Of a stretch of DNA of 64,000 bases, positions 18,794 to 59,291 are shown one piece after another. The stretch is from Planctomycetaceae bacterium (GTDB lineage Bacteria; Planctomycetota; Planctomycetia; Planctomycetales; Planctomycetaceae), in NCBI GenBank assembly GCA_041749515.1, contig JBGTBF010000043.1, forward strand, positions 85,526 through 149,525, written 5' to 3'. The notes under the pieces were generated by a model. The model did not search any database. It worked only from the letters and a program-made list of their open reading frames with translations, and was not told where the DNA came from. Position 1 is the stretch's first letter. Each line of letters starts with the position of its first letter. The position numbers and the translations under genes are program-made.

Positions 18794-21220
18794 TTATGCA
18801 AGCTTGAGGAGCTTTCTTGTTAACCACTCGATTGAGAGTAGTCCCGCCAACATGAACATCAGCCATTTTCGGTCCCAGAGTTCTTTGATCTGTTGATCAA
18901 TCACGATGGACTCGCCTTGATGTGGCAAGAATGCTGGAACTTTTTCCGCTGCTTCAGAGAGCGAAACGTATTCGCCACCAGTTCCATCGACGAGCCGCTT
19001 CAACACTGGCACTTCCTGGATCAGCGAGGCTGCTTCTTGGCGAGGGAGTTTGACGTCCAGTTCCAGCTTCAGGTTTTCGGTCGATTCAGGAACGACGTAT
19101 TCTAACCGATACCGGCCAGGAACGCTCGGTCTGAAATCCCCGACGTATTCTGCCAATCGAACACGATCGCGGATCAATTCTGGACCGGGAATCATGGCTT
19201 TTCCATCGGGTCCGTATGCCTCTAACTGAATCTCATTGGCTGTCAGTGGTTCGAATTGTGGATTCAACGCCCGCAATCGCAGCGGAATTGTATTGCCCAG
19301 TTCAAACTCTCGACCTTCGGTGATAAACAGGCTTCTTTGCAAGCCGCGTTTTGAGCGTCCTTCTGCGGCTTTGCGAACAGACTTGATCCAGAAACGTTCA
19401 AAGTAGGCTTCATCGATTTCTCGCAACCGCCACATTTCAGGACTGCCCAGATAGAGCACTTGTCCCTGTCCATAGCGTTGACCTGCGATCAGGATTGGTT
19501 GACCAGCGGGACCGCGCGAAAGTGGATCGGTGAACTCGGCGTAAATTGTTGTCCCTGCTTTTGGACTCCGTGTCGGGTAACAACGATACACTCCCGAGAA
19601 TTCTTCCCAGGCTGACGCTTCTCCACTTTCTGCGAGCTTCAAAAACTCAGCCACTTCGCCCTCTTGGGTCAAGCCAACGCGGTAAGCGGTCTCGGCTTTT
19701 TCTCGCGCGCCTAAACTTAAGCTGACTTCCTCAAGTTGCACAGGGTACAAGCGGCGCACTGCATCTAACTCGGTTCTGGCTGCCAGTTCGGGAGTAAACA
19801 CATCACCAGCGACCGCCAACATCCCGCCCCCTTCGTTACTGATCCAGTCGGTTAACAGTTGGACTTGCTCCGTGCTCAATGCTGACCAATCGGGGTCAAA
19901 TGCCAACAGCGCATCGTACTCGTACAGTTTTTCTTTGGTTGCAGGAAAACTCAGCAACAGGTTGTCCGCTTCCTGAGAAATCCCGACATCGCCACTTTGC
20001 AACCACACATCGATTTCAATCGACGGATGCCGGTACAATGTCGTTCGGGCAAAACGATAATCCCGCATCGGCCCTCCAGCGACGATCAACACCTTGAGCG
20101 GACGATCGAAGATATTCACTTTACGAGAGTCTTGATTGTCATCGCTACGCGTTTCTGAACCGTTCAGCATGGCTGCTCGAACGGTGTACTCATACTCCCC
20201 AGCTTCGCCGGGCTTCAGGTCAAACACAACTTCTAATAAGCCGTTCTCCGGTAAGCTGCGGTTTTCTGAATTGACAACAATCGCTTCAGCGTCGTTTGGT
20301 CCTTGTTGCAGCAGGTCAACGCGAACATCCTGTCCGTCAATCCCTTGTCCTCCAATGATGGCGGACAGTTCAAAGGCATCTCCTTTTTGTACATCCGTGG
20401 GGGCGATGATTCTGGTGAGTTCCAGATTGACCGGCGGATCGGTCGAACCGACTCCCACAGCAACCAGCCGCACACCATCTTCCACTGCACGTTGCCGAGC
20501 GGAGATCACATCCCGACCCGCGTTCGAGGCTCCATCGGTAATGATGACTACGCCAGCCAGCGTCGGTGATTTCGCTTCAACCAACAGTGTGTCGAGCGAA
20601 TCCCCCAGTCGCGTTGTGTGTCCTGAAGACGCCAGCAACTCTTCCCAATTTGTGGCCTCAACAGCAAGAGGCTCGGTGCTGTTTTCGTTCGCAGAAGATA
20701 ACTCCTTCGGTTTGAACAAACTCGGTAATCTCAGATGCAGTTCGCTGAGATCACTATTAAACGTGTATACATCAACGGTATGTTCACCCTGTAGTTCAGT
20801 GAGAAGTTTTGAATCTGCGAGTAACTTACGAACAGCTTCGGAGCGTGTTACCGGGGACGTTCCAGAACTCTCGCGCGGATCACTTTCTGGTTGCTGCATC
20901 GACGTTGATGTATCGACAAGCACGATTACGCGTGAAGCACGGTAGGCATCGGTCTGGGTGCGGATGTGTGGATTGAGAGCGATAATCAAACCGACGATGA
21001 GGAACGCGATTCTTAACAACGACAGAAAAACAGACCAACCACGTCCCAATCGCGAGGTATCTCGCCATGTGAACCAGACCGTTGTGGCAAGGGCCATCAA
21101 TAGCAGAATAACCGGTATCCATTCAGCGAATGTATACGGCCAATCCAGTTCCAAACTGGAGGAAGTTGCCGGACCGGTTGTTTGGGCTAATAGAAAAATG
21201 GACACGCAGGCTTCGATCAA
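18794..21220 (-). CDS. Membrane-anchored von Willebrand factor A (VWA) domain protein, BatA/BatB-like
   Basis: Two N-terminal TM helices. VWA/MIDAS-like region (VIVLVDTSTSM ... VVIITDGASNAG). Large C-terminal extension. 808 aa. Confidence 0.7.
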   Translation of the reverse strand: MIEACVSIFLLAQTTGPATSSSLELDWPYTFAEWIPVILLLMALATTVWFTWRDTSRLGRGWSVFLSLLRIAFLIVGLIIALNPHIRTQTDAYRASRVIVLVDTSTSMQQPESDPRESSGTSPVTRSEAVRKLLADSKLLTELQGEHTVDVYTFNSDLSELHLRLPSLFKPKELSSANENSTEPLAVEATNWEELLASSGHTTRLGDSLDTLLVEAKSPTLAGVVIITDGASNAGRDVISARQRAVEDGVRLVAVGVGSTDPPVNLELTRIIAPTDVQKGDAFELSAIIGGQGIDGQDVRVDLLQQGPNDAEAIVVNSENRSLPENGLLEVVFDLKPGEAGEYEYTVRAAMLNGSETRSDDNQDSRKVNIFDRPLKVLIVAGGPMRDYRFARTTLYRHPSIEIDVWLQSGDVGISQEADNLLLSFPATKEKLYEYDALLAFDPDWSALSTEQVQLLTDWISNEGGGMLAVAGDVFTPELAARTELDAVRRLYPVQLEEVSLSLGAREKAETAYRVGLTQEGEVAEFLKLAESGEASAWEEFSGVYRCYPTRSPKAGTTIYAEFTDPLSRGPAGQPILIAGQRYGQGQVLYLGSPEMWRLREIDEAYFERFWIKSVRKAAEGRSKRGLQRSLFITEGREFELGNTIPLRLRALNPQFEPLTANEIQLEAYGPDGKAMIPGPELIRDRVRLAEYVGDFRPSVPGRYRLEYVVPESTENLKLELDVKLPRQEAASLIQEVPVLKRLVDGTGGEYVSLSEAAEKVPAFLPHQGESIVIDQQIKELWDRKWLMFMLAGLLSIEWLTRKLLKLA

Positions 21221-34083: not shown

Positions 34084-35151
34084 ATGCGATTTCAAAAAAA
34101 CATCTCTCCGCCCCCTTATCTAAATCGACGCGATCAGTACCGAATGCTGATGATGGTGGGACTGTTGATGCTGATTGTCATCGGGATCAAATACACCGCA
34201 GACCCCGCTAACTGGCAATGGTTTTTTAATCTCGATAAACAACCTGCACAAACCGAGATGGAGTTGAAAGAACTCAAACTTGACGATATCGATTTTCAGA
34301 TCAAGCCGGAAAGGAACGGCTCTCTGCCCGCTGAGACTTTCATTGCACTCGAATCAGAGACCACTCCGCAAGTAGTCTTTGGCTCTAAAAATGAGATTGG
34401 TCAATTCCCCAAAGAACTTCTGTCCGACATCAAAGACCAACAGCTCAAACTTCTTCGTCGCGAGCAACCCGCACTCGAAGCGATTGTCCAGCACCTTAAA
34501 TCCACCTCGCAACAAGAATTGGAAGATGCTGCAAACAGATCGGTCGGTTTTCGCGTCATAAATGTCGAACCAGATGCTTATCGCGGTATGCTGATAAGAA
34601 TTGAAGGGACTCTTCGTAACTTTACTTCCTTTCCGTTCGGCGACAGTCAGACAACTGCTGACGATCTGTATCAGGGCTGGGTCTTTACGGACGATTCTGG
34701 CAGCAAACCATGGATGATTCTCTGCACCGAAAAACCGACCGGATTGGAACTGCAAGAGCGAATGGAAGTTCCTATGACCGTCTCCGGTTACTTCTTCAAG
34801 CGCTACGGGTATCAGTCCGAAGGAGGCATGAACGTTGCTCCGTTGCTGATTGCAAAGTCAATCTCTCTACAACCGATTCGGCAAGCGCGACATGTGCGCA
34901 ACGAAAACATCAGCCTGTATGTGATCTGGGTACTGGGCATAATTTCGCTCCTCTTCGCTCTCATGATTTGGAGATTCTACGCCAGCGATAAAAAATACGA
35001 GAACAGCCACCTCGCTCAGATTGCCGAGTCGAGAAGAGACGCAGACCCCGAAGCGATCAAGCAACTCAACCTGTTGCCAACCATCGATCAACAGGGATTG
35101 TTCAAACATATTCGTGAATCGGACAACAGCGAAGAAAAGCTTAACCCGTAG
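34084..35151 (+). CDS. Hypothetical 2-TM membrane protein (N- and C-terminal anchors, about 250-aa periplasmic domain)
   Basis: Helices at MLMMVGLLMLIVIGI and LYVIWVLGIISLLFALMIW. No ExbD/TolR or TonB signature. Confidence 0.6.
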   Translation: MRFQKNISPPPYLNRRDQYRMLMMVGLLMLIVIGIKYTADPANWQWFFNLDKQPAQTEMELKELKLDDIDFQIKPERNGSLPAETFIALESETTPQVVFGSKNEIGQFPKELLSDIKDQQLKLLRREQPALEAIVQHLKSTSQQELEDAANRSVGFRVINVEPDAYRGMLIRIEGTLRNFTSFPFGDSQTTADDLYQGWVFTDDSGSKPWMILCTEKPTGLELQERMEVPMTVSGYFFKRYGYQSEGGMNVAPLLIAKSISLQPIRQARHVRNENISLYVIWVLGIISLLFALMIWRFYASDKKYENSHLAQIAESRRDADPEAIKQLNLLPTIDQQGLFKHIRESDNSEEKLNP

Positions 35152-36805: not shown

Positions 36806-37831
36806 CTACTTTTCATTTAGGGGAACGTCCCGATATGCCTGATGACAGTTCATGCAGTTCTGACCGATCTGAGCAGTGCGAGTGCTGAGAGCTTCCGGGG
36901 GATAAGCTTGTTCCGTATCAGCTCCGAATTTTTTCAAATCGTCTTCCAGTTTTAGAGCGGCTATCTCGGACTCCTGTAACCACTGACGAAACTTCTCGGG
37001 TTGTTGCCGTACTTCTTCTGTTCTCAACATTTCAGTGAAATGCTCTCGCAGCATCAGCACTTCGTGAACCGGCACAATGTCAGGATGCGTTGGCGGCGTC
37101 TTCCAGCCAGCTTCTTCGATCAACTTCAGATGTTCGTATGCATGACCAATCGCCACCATCGCTTCGGCCATGGGAGGAACAGGAGCCGATTCGGGAAACT
37201 CGACTTGAAGTTCTTCAAGCAATGCGATGTCCAGCGGATGAGCCGTTTGAGCAGAAGCGAACAACCCTCGGTAATTCGGACTTGTCCCAGCAATCTTAAG
37301 AATTTGCATCCCCTGATGGGCTGGAATGAATCCTGCCGACACACAGGCCACGCTTGCAGCGACTGGGCTGCGATGCTTGCCGTGGTGGCAATGGATATAG
37401 ATTGGTCCTTCAAGTTCACGTACTGCTTTGGCCAGTTCTTTGGCGCGCTGTTCGGGAATTCCATCGTATCCGTGTGGCAGATGCACATATCGTAACCCGT
37501 ATTTTCTCGCCATCTCAACGTTCGGTCTCATTCCGTCAACGCTGATAATTGTTTTGATATTGAGATCCTTAAGTTCCTGGAAAGCTGCTTCTCCTTGGGG
37601 AAGACCACCAGAAATCACTTTCGCATGCACCTGCACAGGATTCGGCAGATGTTGGGATATTAACTTATGCGGGCCAGCAAATTCAGTAAGATTCGCTGCT
37701 CTTGTAGAAGCCGTTGCAGTAGAACTAGAACCAACATCACTCTCGACTGAGCTGGCAGGGGCAGCAGGCGATCCGTGATAGCATCCAAACGTTGCGACAA
37801 CGGCGAACGTGAGAGTGAGTCTTCTCAGCAT
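36806..37831 (-). CDS. Secreted dual-specificity/tyrosine-phosphatase-like protein (CX5R) fused to a C-terminal helical domain ending in a CxxCH heme-binding motif (class II cytochrome c'-like)
   Basis: Signal peptide MLRRLTLTFAVVATFGC. P-loop HCHHGKHRS. Last 16 residues are CMNCHQAYRDVPLNEK, preceded by about 120 aa of predicted helix. Confidence 0.7.
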   Translation of the reverse strand: MLRRLTLTFAVVATFGCYHGSPAAPASSVESDVGSSSTATASTRAANLTEFAGPHKLISQHLPNPVQVHAKVISGGLPQGEAAFQELKDLNIKTIISVDGMRPNVEMARKYGLRYVHLPHGYDGIPEQRAKELAKAVRELEGPIYIHCHHGKHRSPVAASVACVSAGFIPAHQGMQILKIAGTSPNYRGLFASAQTAHPLDIALLEELQVEFPESAPVPPMAEAMVAIGHAYEHLKLIEEAGWKTPPTHPDIVPVHEVLMLREHFTEMLRTEEVRQQPEKFRQWLQESEIAALKLEDDLKKFGADTEQAYPPEALSTRTAQIGQNCMNCHQAYRDVPLNEK

Positions 37832-38529: not shown

Positions 38530-39645
38530 ATGATGAATCGATTTCTATGTAGACTATTAGGAGTGATCGTTCTGTTGGGTGCTGCCGATTTGTGGGCACA
38601 GTCTGATCCGCCTCCCGTACCAGCTCCAATGCCATTGGAAACAAGGACCGTCACTGAAGAGGTGACGCGAACATTAGAAGATGGAACAACGGTAACAGAA
38701 CAGGTCACTCGAGAAGTGCCCGTTGAAACCGCACCCCGCGTTTTGGGTGCCCCCCAACAATCGATTGCCCCGAACGCGTCAGGTTCGCAAAACAGCGGAC
38801 AGTTCATGAATAATAACGCGTTCAATGGAGCTGGTGCTAGTGGTGTACCAAATTCGGGTGAAGTGAGAACAAACAACGATCAGCCTCCTCCCCCTAAAAC
38901 TCGGACTTTCATCGATGAATCCGGCAACCGTGTCACCGAGACAACCGTGTTTGTGCCTGTAAGGAGACTTCGACCGGATGGTTCAATCGAGACTGAGTAT
39001 GTCCCTGAACTAAGGTCTCAATCTGCGCCGAATTCCTCTGGATCGAACAACACTCAAGGATTCACTAACACCACTCAGTTTCCAGGCGGGGGGAACACTT
39101 CACCAGCTCTTCCTTCTAACCCCTCGATGAATGGAAACTCCGGCAGCGGAATCATCAACTCGGGAAGCCCCCCGATTGCGCCTCCTCGTACTGATGCGCC
39201 TCCTCATTCTGGATCGTCACCAAGTTTGTCCGGAAATCTCAGTTCAGGAACACCGCCGCTTGCTCCACCACAATCGCATGCTCAAGGGACCCCCAATAAT
39301 CCGCCAGTCGCCCCACCGGTGAATCATTCAGCTCATACGACATCACCGCTCAGTGATCCCCCCGGCGTGCCAGATCATGCCTCCAAGCACCCGATTGTCA
39401 TCATCAATAAAGCAAAGTACGGAGAGTCGGTGTTCTATGTGCTGATCGACGGAAATGTCAAATATCCAATGTCGATGAAACCCGGTGAGGAACAAAAGCT
39501 GGCCCATGACCGCAATTGGATTATTGAGTATCAGAGCGCTCCGGGAGAAATTAAGCAATATGAACTCAAAGGCAAACAACTCTACATCTTCCATCCTGAC
39601 GCAGCAGGGGACTGGAAGCTGTACATGGACAACCTCCGGGAATAA
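38530..39645 (+). CDS. Secreted Pro/Ser/Asn-rich low-complexity protein with an ordered C-terminal beta-rich domain
   Basis: Signal peptide (LLGVIVLLGAADLWA). Long PPxAPP / NSSGSNN low-complexity segment. C-terminal 90 aa look globular (HPIVIINKAKYGESVFYVLIDG...). Confidence 0.6.
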   Translation: MMNRFLCRLLGVIVLLGAADLWAQSDPPPVPAPMPLETRTVTEEVTRTLEDGTTVTEQVTREVPVETAPRVLGAPQQSIAPNASGSQNSGQFMNNNAFNGAGASGVPNSGEVRTNNDQPPPPKTRTFIDESGNRVTETTVFVPVRRLRPDGSIETEYVPELRSQSAPNSSGSNNTQGFTNTTQFPGGGNTSPALPSNPSMNGNSGSGIINSGSPPIAPPRTDAPPHSGSSPSLSGNLSSGTPPLAPPQSHAQGTPNNPPVAPPVNHSAHTTSPLSDPPGVPDHASKHPIVIINKAKYGESVFYVLIDGNVKYPMSMKPGEEQKLAHDRNWIIEYQSAPGEIKQYELKGKQLYIFHPDAAGDWKLYMDNLRE

Positions 39646-42157: not shown

Positions 42158-43828
42158 TTAATAGACTGAAAAGTTAATCGTTTCAGTCGTTATTTTTCCA
42201 CTGAGATCATCCTGCACTGTGAGTTTCAGCACGTGTGGGCCGGGTACCAAGTGTGTGGGCATGTCGATCCGGTAGCTGTGGTAGTAGTCGGTTCGCGGCG
42301 TTCGACACAGGTCTTCTGTTGGAGGAAAAGCGTTACGATCGACTAGTTTTCCATCCGTTCCACCTTGATAGATTTCTACCACCGACTTTAACTTTGTGCG
42401 GTAATACCCGTCTGTTGTTGGCTCGCTTTGAAAGTTTCTCACCTCCGTGTAGACCAGTACGGGCTGCCCGATGTTGAACTCATTCACCTCAAATTGATCA
42501 TAATTTCCGAAGCTGTTGATCTTGGAACAGAAGGTCACATTCTTGAGTTGCAGGTGCGAGATTTCTTGCAGGTGATGGGCAGCGTTGCGAAGTTGGGCAA
42601 TGGTCATGGTTGCTCGTTCTGCCGGACTGGCTGGCGATTGCTCGTCCAGATAATCAGACAGCCCGACAAACATCGCCGTCCAAAACTCCTGTTCAGCTTG
42701 CGAAATGCCAGGAATCGCCTGTTGTGCAAGTTGAGGTTGATCGCCAACCAAATACAACATCCGTAAGGCCACCTGTTTGCGAACGTCTCCACGAATAGCT
42801 GCACTTCCCGGAAGCAAAGAAGAGGTTTCTGCTTCCAAAAGAGAGATCAACTTATCGAGTTCGTCTTCCCACAATTCAGATCCACGGGGAATTCGTAATG
42901 GAGCAGTGTCGGTTGGCTTTGGCTCTGGAGCGGTGTTCAAGTCGAATTGAAGGGAATCCGATTTTGGCGGTTCCGTACTTTCTACATTTTCAGAAACAGT
43001 ACCTCCGCCACCTAGTATCTTTGGAAGCAAACTCAGATGGTTTGCTGTCTTCTCTTTCTCGGTGGGGGGCTTTTCCCCATTTGTCCAAATGCGTTTGGGG
43101 TCTGCCAATGACTTCAACCGATTTGGCCAACTCTGGTCTTTTACGGGACCGGGAGCTTCTAAACCATCTACAGGGGCATCAGCGTCTTCTGGCTTTAATT
43201 CTTCGCCTGTGGCAGAGTTGTCGATTGAGTTGTTTAGTTCTCGAGTTACATCAGCTTGTGAGCTGTCGTCTTGAGAGCTGTTGTCTGTAAGAGTGGCCTC
43301 TGAACTTGCAGAATTGAACGTGTTCAAACCGCTTCCCGAAACGGTTTGAATCTTTTCGTTTGTCTCAGCGATCACTTCTTCATCGCTTAACGGATTTTGA
43401 ACAACGAGTTTTTCTTTGGGGGCAACTTTTTCCGGTGCTACAGGATCTTCAATCCGGCGGGACTTCAAAATATACGGGACCATTTTTGCATCAACGCTAT
43501 TGAGATAGCTGACCCACTCCATCCGTTCTTCCGGGGGAAGATCTTTCAGTTCGGTATCGATCAATGCTTGCGTGGCTGGATCGTGAACGTTGTTTTGAGT
43601 TCCCTCTGCCACCAAAGGTTCACGGCCTGATTCGGTCGCGACAGGGGGAGTTTCGGCTTCAGATTCTAAAGACGCAGGAGAAGAAACCGGGGCTTCTTTG
43701 TTTTTGTTGAAAGAGGGAAGCGCCAGCCGATTGGGAAATGCAAAACGGGGGCTTCCGCCGATCGAGTTGCAGCCACAACTCATCAGAATCAAAAGTATCC
43801 CAAAGCTATCGACATAACGCCGTCGCAT
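42158..43828 (-). CDS. Hypothetical lipoprotein with an acidic Pro/Glu/Ser-rich low-complexity middle and a structured C-terminal domain
   Basis: N-terminus LLILMSCGCN is lipobox-like. 556 aa. No family recognised. Confidence 0.6.
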   Translation of the reverse strand: MRRRYVDSFGILLILMSCGCNSIGGSPRFAFPNRLALPSFNKNKEAPVSSPASLESEAETPPVATESGREPLVAEGTQNNVHDPATQALIDTELKDLPPEERMEWVSYLNSVDAKMVPYILKSRRIEDPVAPEKVAPKEKLVVQNPLSDEEVIAETNEKIQTVSGSGLNTFNSASSEATLTDNSSQDDSSQADVTRELNNSIDNSATGEELKPEDADAPVDGLEAPGPVKDQSWPNRLKSLADPKRIWTNGEKPPTEKEKTANHLSLLPKILGGGGTVSENVESTEPPKSDSLQFDLNTAPEPKPTDTAPLRIPRGSELWEDELDKLISLLEAETSSLLPGSAAIRGDVRKQVALRMLYLVGDQPQLAQQAIPGISQAEQEFWTAMFVGLSDYLDEQSPASPAERATMTIAQLRNAAHHLQEISHLQLKNVTFCSKINSFGNYDQFEVNEFNIGQPVLVYTEVRNFQSEPTTDGYYRTKLKSVVEIYQGGTDGKLVDRNAFPPTEDLCRTPRTDYYHSYRIDMPTHLVPGPHVLKLTVQDDLSGKITTETINFSVY

Positions 43829-52985: not shown

Positions 52986-53467
52986 TGAGCATTCGTTGAA
53001 AATGACACACTTGAAGTTTGCGTCTGATCCCTCGAACTAAATGTGATCATTTCTGATACATGCTTGTGAATGTGATGCATTTTGAAACGGGGTTTGTATT
53101 AGGCCATTAAATATATGTCACTCGATTCAGCGAGAATAATTTCATCGTGATCACATTTTTTAGAAAAGCACCCACTTGCAAGCGTAGCTGTTTTTTTGAC
53201 TGTACTAGCCTGCTCATCCGGTTTCAGGAGTTTCCTAAGGAAATAGACTCTTGTGGAATACAAATATTTTAACAATATATCAGTGGACGTTGTTCCCGAA
53301 GTTGTATAGAGTAAAATTTGATACGATATTTATAGGAACTTCATCATGTATGCTCGAATTATTCCTACTTCGGTACAATATTTGATAATCTTTTCTTTTC
53401 GTATCATAGAACGACTCTGCTGTTATGAGAATTTGTTACATATTTTAGCCCCTTTTTGGAGACTCAC

Positions 53468-54535
53468 ATGAAGCGAACTTTACGTAAAGGTTTTACTCTG
53501 ATTGAATTGCTGGTGGTGATTGCTATTATCGCAATTTTGATCGCATTGCTGTTGCCAGCTGTGCAACAGGCACGTGAAGCGGCCCGCCGTACACAGTGCA
53601 AAAACAATTTTAAGCAATTGGGCTTGGCTTTGCACAACTACCACGATGTGTTTGGACGTTTTGTCTACCGTAAAGGTGGATCTGACGGAAACGCAGCAAC
53701 GCCACGCGGCAATAGCAATCGCCTGTCTGGTTTCATGGCTTTAATGCCATACATCGACCAGGCTCCCCTTTTCAACAAAGTGGCTGCTGGTGGTGGAACA
53801 GGCGCTAAGCCTCCCGGTGGACCAGAAGGTTGGGCTGGCTGGGCTGAATGGGATGTTACAATTCCAGCGGTTGCTTGCCCGTCTGACGGTTTGAATGGAG
53901 ATCAACGTAGATCAACAAGCTACCTGTTCAATATGGGTGATTCAGCTATTAACGTTCGGGACGATCGCAACACGCGCGGTATGTTTGCCTACCAGCGTTG
54001 CGTTAAAATGCGTGACGTAACTGATGGAACGAGTAACACGATTGCAATGAGCGAAGGTGTACAAAGTACCGATTTCGCCCCAGTGACGACGACTGCTGGC
54101 AGCCATCAGTACATTAACACAATTGCTATGGGAGTTGATCCCCGAACAAATCCAGGTGCTTGCCTGGCTCTGAAGAGTGGATCATACTGGGTGACTGGTA
54201 CTTCCGTTAAAGGACGTCGTGGTCGTGCGATGTGGGATGGTCAAGCAGAACGGACCGGCTTTAGCACAATTTTGCCACCTAACAGTCCATCATGTGCAGA
54301 AGGCGCAAACACGAATGCAGACTCAGTACACGTTGCTTTGGCACCTTCCAGCATGCATGTCGGCGGTGTTCAGGTGCTGATGACCGATGGAGCTGTTCGC
54401 TTTATCAGTGAAAACATCGACACTGGCAACCTCGCTGCTGCAAATCCAGCTCAGAACTCCAACGGCGCTAGCCCATACGGAGTTTGGGGATCCCTTGGAA
54501 CTAAAGGTGGAGGCGAAGTTATCGGCGAATTCTAA
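53468..54535 (+). CDS. DUF1559 protein with prepilin-type N-terminal cleavage/methylation domain (Planctomycetes H-X9-DG family)
   Basis: [60 protein letters not shown] is the family's near-invariant N-terminus. RBS ggag. The TTG at 53456 listed in the track is unlikely. Confidence 0.85.
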
Positions 54536-54676: not shown

Positions 54677-55141
54677 ATGTTGAAACTAAACGGATTACTC
54701 ATTTGCTTGATTGCAACAATCGGAATTTCAGGTTGCGGAGGAGGACCAGCCGATCCTGACCGACCGGATTTGACAAAAGTCACCGGCACAGTGTCTTATA
54801 AATCGGCTCCTGTAGAGGGGGCAACCGTCGCATATGCCAACGAAACTATTGGTGGAAAACCGGCCTTTGGAATCACTGATGTCAATGGAAAGTTCTCTCT
54901 AACGACTTTTGAAGATGCGGATGGTGCGATTCCGGGGCCTTACAAAGTCACTATCACCAAAATGGAAAAGGTAATCTCAAAAGCCCTTCCAACCGATGAT
55001 CCCAAGTACGATCCCAACTACGTTGATCCTCCAGCGAAAAGCCTCTTGCCGGATAAGTATGCTCAGGTCAGCACCTCTGGACTGTCAGCGACAGTTGGTC
55101 AAGAACCGATGACCGATGTAAAATTCGATCTGGTTGATTAG
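54677..55141 (+). CDS. Small lipoprotein, carboxypeptidase-regulatory-like/transthyretin-like fold, common partner of DUF1559 genes
   Basis: Lipobox ISGCGG. 154 aa. Motif TGTVSYKSAPVEGATV...ITDVNGKFSL. Confidence 0.7.
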   Translation: MLKLNGLLICLIATIGISGCGGGPADPDRPDLTKVTGTVSYKSAPVEGATVAYANETIGGKPAFGITDVNGKFSLTTFEDADGAIPGPYKVTITKMEKVISKALPTDDPKYDPNYVDPPAKSLLPDKYAQVSTSGLSATVGQEPMTDVKFDLVD

Positions 55142-55173
55142 TCAGACTTTGATACTCCACTACAAACAAAAAT

Positions 55174-55204
55174 GCCAACAGCATCGCGCTGTTGGCTTTT
55201 TTTA
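55174..55204 (+). terminator. Rho-independent terminator after the DUF1559-lipoprotein pair
   Basis: Stem gccaacagc/gctgttggc with a 5-nt loop, followed by a run of 8-9 T. Confidence 0.6.
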
Positions 55205-55237
55205 TGACTGCGTCCAGTCGCATTCTTGGTGTGAGAT

Positions 55238-55474
55238 CTACCGACCGATCTCGCTGAGAGGGCTTCCGTTTCCACCGGTTTGAGCGTATGAATTCGATTG
55301 ACCGATGTGACGGATTGCAGTCCCAACATCTTTGAGTTCGCCGTTCACATTATTGCTCACTTCTGAAAGTCCGGCGGTCATACCCATGACTCCGATAGAA
55401 CTGACCAGAACCAGTTCGCTTGAAACAATGAAGCCAGCTTGGTCAGTGAGCAATGATTGGAAAAGATGGAACAT
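55238..55474 (-). CDS. Putative Flp/Fap-family type IVb pilin (78 aa)
   Basis: RBS gaggag 7 nt before the ATG (complement of 55472-55474). N-terminus MFHLFQSLLTDQAGFIVSSELVLVSSIGVMGMTAG resembles the Flp motif (…DExGAT.IEYGLI…). The upstream part of the track ORF is not conserved-looking. Confidence 0.5.
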   Translation of the reverse strand: MFHLFQSLLTDQAGFIVSSELVLVSSIGVMGMTAGLSEVSNNVNGELKDVGTAIRHIGQSNSYAQTGGNGSPLSEIGR

Positions 55475-55709
55475 GAATGTCTCCTCAAGTTGTCGGTCTA
55501 TGTATGTATGGCAATGAACAATAAATGGAGCCGTGTGTGCCAGCTTCCGACAAGAGAACTCTCGGTGCTTGTCGCGTTGTGTTGGTCGTGGCTCAATCGA
55601 ACAGTAGGTCACAAAGTGCGGGCTGTCGGAGAAATGCGAAGCGCACGGCATTTTCTGGTTGATACGTTCGTACGGCGAGCGATCATGCGGATCGCAGCGA
55701 TCATTGCGG

Positions 55710-57818
55710 TTATTGAGGCTCTAAAATGATGCTTTTTCGCTTCAAAACGATAAAGTACCCTTGTGTCAAATCGGGGAGTAGTTCCCATTCATCCGAAGAT
55801 TCACGCAGCTCGCGCACTTCAGATGGTGCATGAATCTCGCTGTAGGGATGTCGAGTGTCGATCACTATGTACTGCGTATCGTCGGGGACCTTGGGCAAAT
55901 AGTCCGACACCTTCCGCAGGTAATTGCTGTAATCATAAGAGCGTTCGTGATGCGTGAAACGTGGATGAACATAGTCTGTCGAAGCGACTCGGGCTGAGAG
56001 GGGGATCAACGATTCAATCTTCGCAAACTGCTTGGCACGTTCATCGGGTATGTACCGGGCTTTCCAAAACGCGGCTCGACCAGAATCCCAGAATCGAATG
56101 CTCAGTGGCCCAAAGCTGAAGATAATGCAACTTGCAAATGCACAGCACAAGACCCAGGTTGCTTGTCGCTGCGAGTATGACGCGGCCTTGAGTTTCTGGC
56201 TTTCACTTGCCGGCGTTGCGACGGAAGGCAATTGCAAACATGTACACATCGCCCACATGACAATTGGGACCAGTGGAGCATGGAAGTGATGGACCGGACC
56301 GGGCGTTTGCTGGGCGAGTTCGTTCAAACACAACAACAGAAACAGCGGAGCACCCACCAGTAATTGACTCCAGGCTCGAAAGGGAAACCCCACGGGCACA
56401 AGCAACTGTAAGAACAAGACGAAGCTGCCAGCGGTGATGAATTGCGACAACAGCGTTCCCGGTTTGGTCAGCATGTTGACGACAATTTCGGTAGGAGTTT
56501 CCCCAAATTCGCTGAAATAGCGGGCATAGTGAACGGTCTCTCCGCTACGGAACCATGGAATCGCGTACTTCACAACGAACAACAAATACGCGGTCGCCAA
56601 AAGGCAAAGACAGGCCCCCACCAGAATGGTGACTCTCTTGGAAGCTGACGTACTTTCGGACTTCATCGCATCACTTTGCTTCTCAAAATATGTGGTGAGC
56701 ACCAACCACAATCCCAGCGGGGCCAGCACAATCGCAAAGTCTTCTTTGCAAGCGAGCGCCAACACGCTGAACAACGACATCAGTCCCCACCGAATCCGCT
56801 CCAGCGCATCGATCGCCCACAACAGCAGCGGAACACCAAAGGCGATCGGGCGAAATGTTTTGAGATCGATCGAGATATCGAGATAGTGGATGGGGAAGTA
56901 CAACAAATACGCGAGTGCGACGATCGCGGCTGCACGAGGATTTTGCGAATGTCGTTTTGCAATTACATACACCGGGATCGCGCCGCTCGCAAGTGCGAGA
57001 CTTTCACAAAGTTCCAGCAACAAATGCGACGGCCAAAATACATACAGGGGGGTCAACAAAACATGGATGACCTGAATATGCTCACCCAGAAATAACCCTT
57101 GATCGAGGTAACTGCGAAAACCTTTTCCATGCAAGAGATTCCACAAATGTTCTTCGTACATAGAAGAATCTCCGTGCGGCAATCGCAGGCTGAACCACAA
57201 GCCCCAGTTCAAGGCAGTAAAGATAATTGTGTAAAGGACGACACTCGCGCCGACAATTCGCCATGCGGTACTATTCTGAATCGTCGTTTCATTCCGGATC
57301 CACATTCGCCACAACCACGCTGCCAGTGCAAGCACCACACTGATATCGAGCGTCAGAATCAACAGTGTCGTTAACCATGGTAAGCCAAACAACAAGGCCA
57401 CGATCCACAACACAACCCATGTGATGACTGGTGAAATACAAACCGTTGTGATCATCACTGATTGCAGAAAACGCTCGAAGTACGAAGCCGGTTGATGGAG
57501 ATGAATTCGGAAAGCCATCAGCAGATTGAGCACCAGGCAGATCACCCCCGCCAGTATCCCTACTCCGAATAACGACGCAGTGACACCAACACCATTAGGA
57601 ACAGGCTGAACTTCTCCGCCAAGCAATTCAACCAGTTGCAGCCACCATTCGTGACTCAAAAAGGTCTGTGACAGTACCACTTCCTCGATAACAAACAGCA
57701 ACCACAAACAGAGACTTATGAACTGCCCCATCGCGCAGCCCAACACAACTGCCGGGGAGACAGACGAGTCATCAGGAATTGTATTTCGGGGTGGCACGGG
57801 TGAAAAAGTCTCTCTCAT
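55710..57818 (-). CDS. Large polytopic membrane protein, DUF2079-like / GT-C-fold-like, 702 aa
   Basis: At least 14 predicted TM helices plus a C-terminal about 130-aa soluble domain (…YIVIDTRHPYSEIHAP…GYFIVLKRK). The family assignment is from memory and not verified. Confidence 0.5.
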   Translation of the reverse strand: MRETFSPVPPRNTIPDDSSVSPAVVLGCAMGQFISLCLWLLFVIEEVVLSQTFLSHEWWLQLVELLGGEVQPVPNGVGVTASLFGVGILAGVICLVLNLLMAFRIHLHQPASYFERFLQSVMITTVCISPVITWVVLWIVALLFGLPWLTTLLILTLDISVVLALAAWLWRMWIRNETTIQNSTAWRIVGASVVLYTIIFTALNWGLWFSLRLPHGDSSMYEEHLWNLLHGKGFRSYLDQGLFLGEHIQVIHVLLTPLYVFWPSHLLLELCESLALASGAIPVYVIAKRHSQNPRAAAIVALAYLLYFPIHYLDISIDLKTFRPIAFGVPLLLWAIDALERIRWGLMSLFSVLALACKEDFAIVLAPLGLWLVLTTYFEKQSDAMKSESTSASKRVTILVGACLCLLATAYLLFVVKYAIPWFRSGETVHYARYFSEFGETPTEIVVNMLTKPGTLLSQFITAGSFVLFLQLLVPVGFPFRAWSQLLVGAPLFLLLCLNELAQQTPGPVHHFHAPLVPIVMWAMCTCLQLPSVATPASESQKLKAASYSQRQATWVLCCAFASCIIFSFGPLSIRFWDSGRAAFWKARYIPDERAKQFAKIESLIPLSARVASTDYVHPRFTHHERSYDYSNYLRKVSDYLPKVPDDTQYIVIDTRHPYSEIHAPSEVRELRESSDEWELLPDLTQGYFIVLKRKSIILEPQ

Positions 57819-58091
57819 TAAGAATTAAATTCGTGTCAACAAGCATCACTTGGTCAATCTCGGTCATTTCGCTTTAATTCATAATGCCGACCACTCGCGA
57901 TACAAGTGCTTTGTGTCTCGTGCAATCAACCGAAGGGATCACTGCGACTAATGTAAGTCTTGTCTTATTGTTGCGAGTTTTTGCCTCGGGAGCCAGCAGG
58001 AATATGAATTCCGGAATAGTCACTTTGCCTTGGGATGGCAGACCGATAAGATGTAACAGCGTATGATGTATCGCCTCGCCAACTTCCCGCC

Positions 58092-59291
58092 TTGCCTGTC
58101 TCTGGAAATGAGATGCTGATTCCTGAGTTTGATTTTGATCCACGTACCCGCGTTCTGTTTGGTGCGGGTATGTTGTCTCGACTGAGCCAGGAAGTGATTG
58201 GTTACGGCGGGACACGCGTATTGCTGGTGAGTGATAAAGGTCTTAAAGAGGTTGGGCACGAGTCCCGGGCAGTGAAGATTTTGTCCGATGCCGGTTTGCA
58301 TGTCGAGGTCTTTGACGACGTGCATCCCAACCCGACAACCTTGGACATCGAGCTGGGCACCGCGTTTGCAAAAGATCAGCAGATCGATTTCATTGTTGGT
58401 CTGGGTGGTGGCAGTAGCATGGACTGTGCGAAAGGGATTAACTTTCTGCTCACCAATGGCGGACGGATGCAGGACTACCACGGCGTTGGCAAGGCGACCA
58501 AGCCAATGCTGCCAATGATCGCGATTCCCACAACTTCCGGCACAGGCAGTGAAGCGCAATCCTACGCGGTCATCGCCGATCCAGACACGCACATGAAAAT
58601 GGCCTGCGGCGATAAAAAAGCGGCTGCAAGGTTGGCGATTCTTGATCCAGAGTTGACCGTCACCATGCCGAAGGCGGTCACCGCAGTGACCGGAATCGAT
58701 GCGATCTCGCACGCCCTCGAAAGTTTTGTAACGACAAAACGTGGACCGGTTTCCAGTTTGTTCGGGCGACAGGCCTGGCAACTTTTGAACAATTCGTTCA
58801 TACAGGTGCTCACAGATCCCCATGACATCGACGCCCGGGGAGCGATGTTACTGGGAGCTCATCTGGCTGGCTCAGCGATAGAGAACTCGATGTTGGGTGC
58901 GACACATTCACTGGCGAATCCGCTGTCTGCTCATTTCGGTTTGACGCACGGAGTTGTGATTGGAATTCTGTTGCCGCATGTCATTCGCTTTAATGCAGAA
59001 GTACCCGACGTCCGTAAGTTGTACGGAATTCTGGCAGCAGATGTCGGCCTCTGCAAAGAGTCCGATCCCTCCGCAGGCCAGCACTTGGCAAAGCGTGTGC
59101 AAGACTGTGTTCGTACCGCCGAATTACCAACGGCGCTCATTGATTGCGATGTCGATGAAATGCTGATCCCGGTCTTGGCGCAGGAAGCTGCAAAGCAATG
59201 GACTGCTCAATTCAATCCACGACCTGTTGACCCGATATCTCTGGAGAAACTGTATCGATGCGCATTTCACAACAACAACAACAACAACTAA
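58092..59291 (+). CDS. Iron-containing (group III) alcohol dehydrogenase
   Basis: [10 protein letters not shown] motif, metal-binding His residues (…HALES…, …[16 protein letters not shown]…). C-terminus ends in six Asn residues encoded by an (AAC) tract. Confidence 0.85.

Follow-up and report, generated by a model that had tools for sequence, protein, structure and literature searches.

A multi-copy family of small planctomycete proteins with remote similarity to Flp pilins

The Flp/Fap pilins (PF04964), such as Caulobacter PilA and Aggregatibacter Flp1, are small proteins in which a short leader ending in acidic-x-Gly precedes a hydrophobic alpha-1 N-terminal segment with a buried glutamate. 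Solved pilins of the Tad (tight adherence) type are single helices of 40–60 residues (PMC10710030). Planctomycetes carry conspicuous pili-like fibres, which have been associated with crateriform structures and with the binding of polysaccharides and whose components are still unidentified (PMC5394234; PMC12673574). Here we analyse a 78-amino-acid protein encoded in a 64-kb stretch of Planctomycetaceae DNA (contig JBGTBF010000043.1). This whole stretch is the window to which all coordinates refer, and strands are given relative to its forward strand. The gene lies next to that of a 702-amino-acid membrane protein, and a first-pass annotation of the same DNA had read the two as an orphan Flp-type pilin and an enzyme that might glycosylate it. 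We found that the 78-residue protein belongs to a large, uncurated family whose sequence profile is remotely similar to that of Flp, that most of the family genes examined have a sigma-54 element upstream, and that the adjacency to the membrane protein gene is incidental. A search of the literature on planctomycete Flp and Tad, and on the family members Plim_2645, Plim_2646 and Plim_3937, turned up nothing on Flp or Tad pilins that was specific to planctomycetes.

The 78-residue open reading frame (ORF) is a genuine, conserved gene. It is more than a chance ORF: hundreds of proteins share its conserved N-terminal part of ~60 residues. A spurious reading was judged unlikely on this ground and on that of the ribosome-binding site, which is strong, as the first-pass annotation had said; the peptide quoted there is also present (Table 1). 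A word-indexed homology search returned only 3 proteins, and it took an exhaustive search of 1.8 billion representatives with a profile, together with a pattern scan of genomes, to bring out the family. The profile search gave 2032 representatives at E ≤ 1e-3, of which 904 remained at E ≤ 1e-10. Its top representative match, a 1020-residue repeat protein with 13 partial matches to the motif (P0004; DEEGFVVTKTEYVLVSE), looks like a chance motif match and was discarded. The genome scan, which used one genome per species and confirmation by tblastn, yielded 162 relatives; the best 80 of these 162 are all from Planctomycetota and mostly from Planctomycetaceae, including Planctopirus, Schlesneria, Planctomicrobium and many metagenome-assembled genomes. 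The word 'orphan' thus does not fit the sequence, which has a large family, although it does fit the surroundings, as neither the window nor 79 related loci yielded any assembly genes.

The family is defined by the signature [DE][DEQ]xG-F-x4-E-L, which is present in 150 of 153 members. The modal leader has 14 residues; phenylalanine occupies position +1 in 146 of 150 members, a single glutamate at +6 is invariant, and leucine comes directly after that glutamate in 143 of 150. A hydrophobic stretch of ~22 residues follows, and then an acidic amphipathic segment (..GLSEV..N.EL.DV..). Most members are 90–110 amino acids long, with a median mature length of ~88, and end in a GHKG..GS.F.D..DFCD..D tail, often with cysteine. 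The C-terminal tails are variable and rich in Cys, Gly and Asp. Many contain paired cysteines, in keeping with a place outside the cytoplasm; one representative in three is free of cysteine.

The protein encoded in the window retains all of the family-invariant residues (D11, G14, F15, E20, L21, G35-L36, E46-L47 and D49). Its predicted leader runs from M1 to G14 (..TDQAG), with predicted cleavage between G14 and F15 (nt 55433/55432); the junction reads AG-FIVSS-EL, and E20 is the invariant glutamate. The hydrophobic segment comprises residues 15–36, and the predicted mature protein has 64 residues. In the AlphaFold2 (AF2) model, which has a pLDDT (predicted local distance difference test) score of 82.7, a short leader helix is followed by a break at D11, one continuous helix from residue 12 to 66 and a disordered tail. 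The protein is a short, cysteine-free variant of the family that does not have the GHKG..DFCD tail. Its closest relative, P0039, an 86-residue protein from another organism, is likewise short and ends in ..IGR.

Several copies of the family gene occur per genome, often near-identical (at least 7 in one metagenome-assembled genome, at least 4 on the ih15 chromosome and 3 in Planctopirus limnophila) and frequently as tandem pairs. In the upstream regions we found a sigma-54 −24/−12 element, TGGCAY-N5-yTGCT, located 60–140 nt before the ATG in 69 of 104 non-identical family sequences (relatives in loci L002-L081 and L162-L166), compared with 2–3 of 104 in reverse-complement and shuffled controls. 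The pilA genes, for example those of Pseudomonas and Myxococcus, are classical cases of control by sigma-54. Near-identical copies, tandem pairs and sigma-54 promoters are together what one would look for in a structural subunit. In the window copy, TGGCACACACGGCTCC stands 68 nt before the ATG; its GG and GC are spaced as GG-N8-GC, with the GC of the −12 box shifted by two bases. A canonical promoter (TGGCAC-N5-TTGCW, with GG and GC 10 nt apart) is absent from this copy, and its sigma-54 promoter reads as degenerate, with only the −24 box kept.

Public databases hold the family under several names. Plim_2645, Plim_2646, Plim_3937 and their homologues, of ~100 amino acids, are recorded at NCBI as 'hypothetical' or as 'branched-chain amino acid aminotransferase', and the latter name, which also appears in UniRef, is evidently spurious and has been propagated. 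One IMG record labels a member 'Flp pilus assembly pilin Flp'. The family has no Pfam or NCBIfam model, and the misnamed records are an annotation error worth fixing. The sigma-54 element upstream of the family genes and the recognition of an uncurated, mis-annotated family are what is new here.

The surroundings of the family genes vary. Clustering of the neighbours in 79 family loci revealed no recurrent partner gene; the adjacent genes included tig (trigger factor)/clpP, elongation factor G, S41 peptidase, sulfatases, DUF1501 and, occasionally, DUF1559, and the annotated loci of P. limnophila and P. ephydatiae gave the same picture. Neither Tad genes, type IV pilus genes nor modifying genes were detected by this clustering, and a scan of all family loci for the Walker-A motif of secretion ATPases found none.

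To relate the family to known pilins, we compared its profile by hhalign with an alignment of 48 Caulobacter-type Flp pilins, all of them PF04964. The match scored 30.7 (P=5e-5) over 56 collinear columns spanning the whole of Flp, at a probability of 67.6%, which lies under the usual >90% confidence level. It pairs the DE.G of the family with the DESG of Flp and the invariant glutamate with Glu5, with a one-residue gap. Controls scored lower (15.7 for the reversed Flp alignment; at most 21.1, and typically about 11, for 30 column shuffles), and the match to local N termini of type IV pilins and pseudopilins was weaker than that to Flp, at 19.4. The family further resembles Flp/Fap in its hydrophobic alpha-1 segment with a buried glutamate, and in being small and, as predicted, essentially one long helix (AF2; PMC10710030). 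By contrast, it has one more residue between the glycine and the glutamate and a leucine for the Tad-specific tyrosine; its +1 residue is phenylalanine, as in type IVa pilins; its mature protein is usually longer, often with a cysteine-containing tail; no family gene lies in or near a tad locus among ~80 loci; and the Pfam model fails to recognise it. The protein may thus be called Flp-like, as the hhalign match suggests, but the strict Flp assignment of the first-pass annotation does not hold: the family appears, from its profile, to be a remotely similar, Flp-like variant rather than a member of Flp.

With type IVa pilins and the pseudopilins of type II secretion systems (N_methyl, TIGR02532), the family shares the Gly-Phe junction, a glutamate early in the hydrophobic helix, sigma-54 promoters and, in many members, a C-terminal cysteine pair. 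It differs from them, and from the neighbouring DUF1559 protein, in that its leader is acidic rather than basic and its glutamate stands at +6, and it has no globular alpha/beta domain. The N_methyl models matched neither the 78-residue protein nor its relatives, in which Phe +1 is present and Glu is at +6.

One locus among the relatives (L058:8633-8878, plus strand) encodes a divergent paralogue beside a standard family member. It reads ..NQDGFVISTEYVLIG.., with the spacing G-x5-E-Y, and keeps the tyrosine of the Flp 'EY'; the Pfam-annotated neighbours in this locus are unrelated housekeeping genes. In evolutionary terms, this paralogue may stand as an intermediate between Flp and the small-protein family.

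The 702-residue protein matches DUF2079 (PF09852) with E=5.3e-50 and 171 bits, against a cut-off of 28.2. The match covers residues 217-677 and profile positions 11-445 of 459, and ~180 N-terminal residues with additional helices fall outside the model. Orthologues that are 43–56% identical occur in Planctomicrobium, Thalassoglobus, Maioricimonas and Gimesia. An AF2 model built with 45 orthologues (pLDDT 89.8; predicted template modelling score, pTM, 0.91), when searched against the PDB with Foldseek, had only glycosyltransferases of the GT-C fold (ArnT, ALG9, STT3/PglB and AftA) among its top 15 matches, at probability 1.00 and E values of 1e-4 to 1e-2, although the template modelling (TM) scores were modest (0.3-0.5, up to 0.52) and the identity was 11–13%. 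The motif PHGDSxMYEEHxWN (residues 214–227) is invariant in the 45 orthologues; its D217, E222 and E223 lie in a loop and short helix after the transmembrane helix 182–209 of the model. In GT-C enzymes, the catalytic acidic residues sit in the first extracytoplasmic loop, after a transmembrane helix. The 702-residue protein resembles these glycosyltransferases in its polytopic fold, its invariant acidic residues in the modelled loop after a transmembrane helix and its soluble C-terminal domain, and differs from them in the modest structural scores and low identity. These models support the GT-C/DUF2079-like label of the first-pass annotation, and we conclude that the protein is, as modelled, a DUF2079 member with a GT-C fold. 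It is probably an independent, conserved membrane glycosyltransferase that uses a lipid-linked donor; we know of no characterised DUF2079 member.

The start of the 702-residue gene is ambiguous, as a 100% identical public protein is called with 673 amino acids, 29 residues shorter, from M30 (nt 57731); AF2 confidence is low for residues 1–15. Among the orthologue loci (L082-L161), 24 have a divergent gene for an HD-domain-like protein upstream, and in 13 the gene after that of the DUF2079 protein encodes an SGNH-hydrolase-like membrane protein; the window has neither of the two at the corresponding position.

How might the 78-residue protein function? We consider it about an even bet that it is a divergent Flp-like (type IVc-like) prepilin, with genes elsewhere supplying the machinery for its processing and assembly, and we put cleavage of the leader at DQAG/F and incorporation into a type-IV-like filament at equally balanced chances, in both cases judging from sequence. 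The protein would insert with its N terminus inside into the cytoplasmic membrane through the hydrophobic segment of residues 15–36. An A24-type prepilin peptidase encoded elsewhere would remove the ~14-residue leader at DQAG/F, leaving a mature protein of ~64 residues that would be essentially one long alpha-1 helix. This protein could then be polymerised, or taken in as a minor subunit, by machinery encoded elsewhere to give a thin type-IV-like filament. Most family members would be transcribed from a sigma-54 promoter; the window copy, with only its −24 box, may be weakly or differently expressed. Several results weigh against a prepilin. Pfam and NCBIfam gave no match to the 78-residue protein at E≤1, including for PF04964, the search that the first-pass annotation had set beforehand as a check on its Flp label, with the lack of a match counting as refutation. 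In scans of 95 relatives no model from either collection rose above threshold, and PF04964 gave sub-threshold matches in 7 of the 95 (best E=0.028). The Flp motif G/XXXXEY, another check proposed there, is absent, with Glu at +6 instead of +5 and Leu instead of Tyr next to it; the conserved Thr2 and Gly7 of Flp are missing from the family (compared with PMC10710030); and the hhalign probability of ~68% is short of the customary level. The leader carries little positive charge. Genes for a secretion ATPase, a platform protein or a prepilin peptidase were absent from within 8-10 kb of the family genes in ~80 loci. Foldseek returned 0 PDB matches for the AF2 model of the 78-residue protein, a lone helix being uninformative in such a search, and the sole match in a sequence profile search of the PDB, CydH, was judged to be due to chance. 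Finally, the window copy has neither the cysteine tail nor a canonical sigma-54 promoter and could be a decaying paralogue. Much of this would equally suit a single-pass inner-membrane protein, such as a membrane-embedded regulator or accessory subunit, that is never cleaved or polymerised and resembles Flp by convergence, simply through having a short N-terminal tail followed by a transmembrane helix. The failure of every curated pilin model, the glutamate at +6 instead of +5, the lack of linkage to assembly genes in ~80 loci and weak matches to other small transmembrane proteins, such as Sec61beta and CydH, all speak for such a protein. But the similarity to Flp is collinear, rises above the composition controls and takes in the DE.G motif of the leader, which is not part of the membrane helix, as well as the buried glutamate. 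A near-invariant Gly-Phe junction and an invariant charged glutamate in a transmembrane helix are difficult to account for unless the protein is processed or assembled, and near-identical multi-copy paralogues with sigma-54 promoters suit an abundant structural protein. We therefore hold the convergent membrane protein to be a credible but distinctly less probable explanation.

The other explanations fare worse. The window copy might be without function of its own, a silent or decaying paralogue whose tail has been cut short and whose sigma-54 promoter is broken; this would account for its length of 78 residues against a family mode of about 90–110, for the missing GHKG..DFCD tail and for the displaced −12 box; yet its reading frame is intact, its ribosome-binding site is strong and every family-invariant residue is kept, and P0039, similarly short and with the same ..IGR C terminus in another organism, points to a maintained subfamily, which makes decay improbable. 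Even less likely is a precursor role, in which the protein would yield a peptide that is secreted or modified, bacteriocin-like or akin to ribosomally synthesized and post-translationally modified peptides (RiPPs), with the N terminus serving as leader and the variable, often cysteine-rich C terminus as core. The composition of the tails would allow this, as would weak matches to the Cys-Xaa-Xaa-Xaa and His-Xaa-Ser repeat models of radical S-adenosylmethionine (SAM) enzyme targets and to a YxzE-like bacteriocin model, but the family genes have no recurrent neighbour that encodes a modifying enzyme, a transporter or an immunity protein; what is conserved is a hydrophobic helix of 22 residues together with an amphipathic one, unlike RiPP leaders; and cysteine is lacking altogether from the window copy and from a third of the representatives. 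The reading of the first-pass annotation, an orphan Flp pilin glycosylated by the adjacent GT-C enzyme, is in our view the least probable. GT-C enzymes can glycosylate pilins, as TfpW of P. aeruginosa does. The two genes do run in the same direction, the 235 bp between them contain no strong terminator, and the GT-C fold has been confirmed; the small gene, however, lies downstream of the large one on the minus strand, and not upstream of it as had been stated. A family member was found within 5 kb of a DUF2079 orthologue at only 1 of 80 metagenomic loci, where it is on the opposite strand; none of the 79 small-protein loci has a DUF2079 neighbour; and P0039 does not adjoin one. The neighbours of the DUF2079 orthologues vary, and the small-protein family is multi-copy and scattered. 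Because only 1 of 80 DUF2079 loci has a family member nearby, the adjacency in the window is incidental, and glycosylation of a pilin by the DUF2079 enzyme is therefore not supported. The absence of conserved linkage largely refutes the glycosylation model, a useful negative, since the pilin–glycosyltransferase pairing should not be propagated.

Should the 78-residue protein and its relatives supply the fibres of planctomycetes, they would form a new pilin class with an Flp-like leader, phenylalanine at +1, glutamate at +6, a cysteine-containing tail and sigma-54-driven expression. Their assembly would then proceed through non-canonical machinery, or through the one that serves the DUF1559 prepilin-like proteins, of which there are hundreds. 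Multi-copy, often sigma-54-driven, Flp-like and present across the sampled Planctomycetaceae genomes, the family is a concrete candidate for planctomycete fibres. That it supplies the protein subunits of surface fibres specific to planctomycetes, namely the 12-nm pili-like ones arising at large crateriform structures and the 6-nm polar stalk/holdfast fibres of Planctopirus, is, for now, a long shot, to which we give a little more weight than to decay of the window copy.

The features of the locus are collected in Table 1. On the plus strand, the DUF1559 gene encodes a protein with all the features of that group, namely the N_methyl motif (PF07963, 3.5e-8), the SBP_bac_10 domain (PF07596, 1e-49) and the HX9DG motif (TIGR04294, 1e-8). 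Its lipoprotein partner has a weak CarboxypepD_reg-like match (E=5.9e-4) that is under the Pfam cut-off. The first-pass annotation was right about the prepilin motif, the partner and the strand, but the pair is not immediately upstream of the 78-residue ORF: it is convergent, tail-to-tail with it, and the terminator between them is common to both sides. Of the 79 related family loci only 4 have DUF1559 genes, which leaves the proposed 'pilin/pseudopilin cluster' weak, and the pair is probably an unrelated convergent neighbour.

Table 1. Features around the 78-residue ORF, in window coordinates
Feature	Position	Strand	Basis or remark
DUF1559 (SBP_bac_10) protein	53456-54535	plus	Type IV prepilin N-terminal methylation motif KGFTLIEL; HX9DG C-terminal motif
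154-residue lipoprotein, lipobox ISGC	54677-55141	plus	Downstream partner of the DUF1559 gene
Bidirectional intrinsic terminator	55174-55196	both	Perfect; 10-bp GC-rich stem, T-runs on each strand
78-residue small-protein ORF	55238-55474	minus	ORF call and translation; contains peptide LLTDQAGFIVSSELVLVSSIGVMGMTAG
Shine-Dalgarno sequence GAGGAG	55481-55486	minus	6 nt before the ATG of the 78-residue ORF; read from sequence
TGGCAC, sigma-54 −24-like box	55537-55542	minus	68 nt before the ATG of the 78-residue ORF
702-residue polytopic DUF2079 protein, GT-C glycosyltransferase fold (modelled)	55710-57818	minus	Pfam, AF2, Foldseek

A Pfam survey of the larger ORFs of the window bore out the statement that it holds no tad machinery, as no T2SSE secretion ATPase, T2SSF platform protein or A24 prepilin peptidase was among them. 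The surveyed ORFs are ordinary housekeeping genes, and a few gave no match whatever; ORFs of 341–767 amino acids at 18794-21097, 34084-35151, 36806-37831, 38530-39645 and 42158-43828 had no Pfam match at E≤1e-5. An Rfam scan of 54900-58300 gave nothing credible. The planctomycete origin of the window is supported by its PSCyt/DUF1553 and DUF1559 genes and by the fact that all close relatives are Planctomycetaceae. At 59270-59287, where the 3' end of an Fe-alcohol dehydrogenase gene (..HNNNNNN-stop) overlaps the start of the next ORF, a pyrroloquinoline quinone (PQQ)/beta-propeller protein, there is an (ACA)6/(CAA)6 repeat; this trinucleotide repeat could be a slippage-prone tract.

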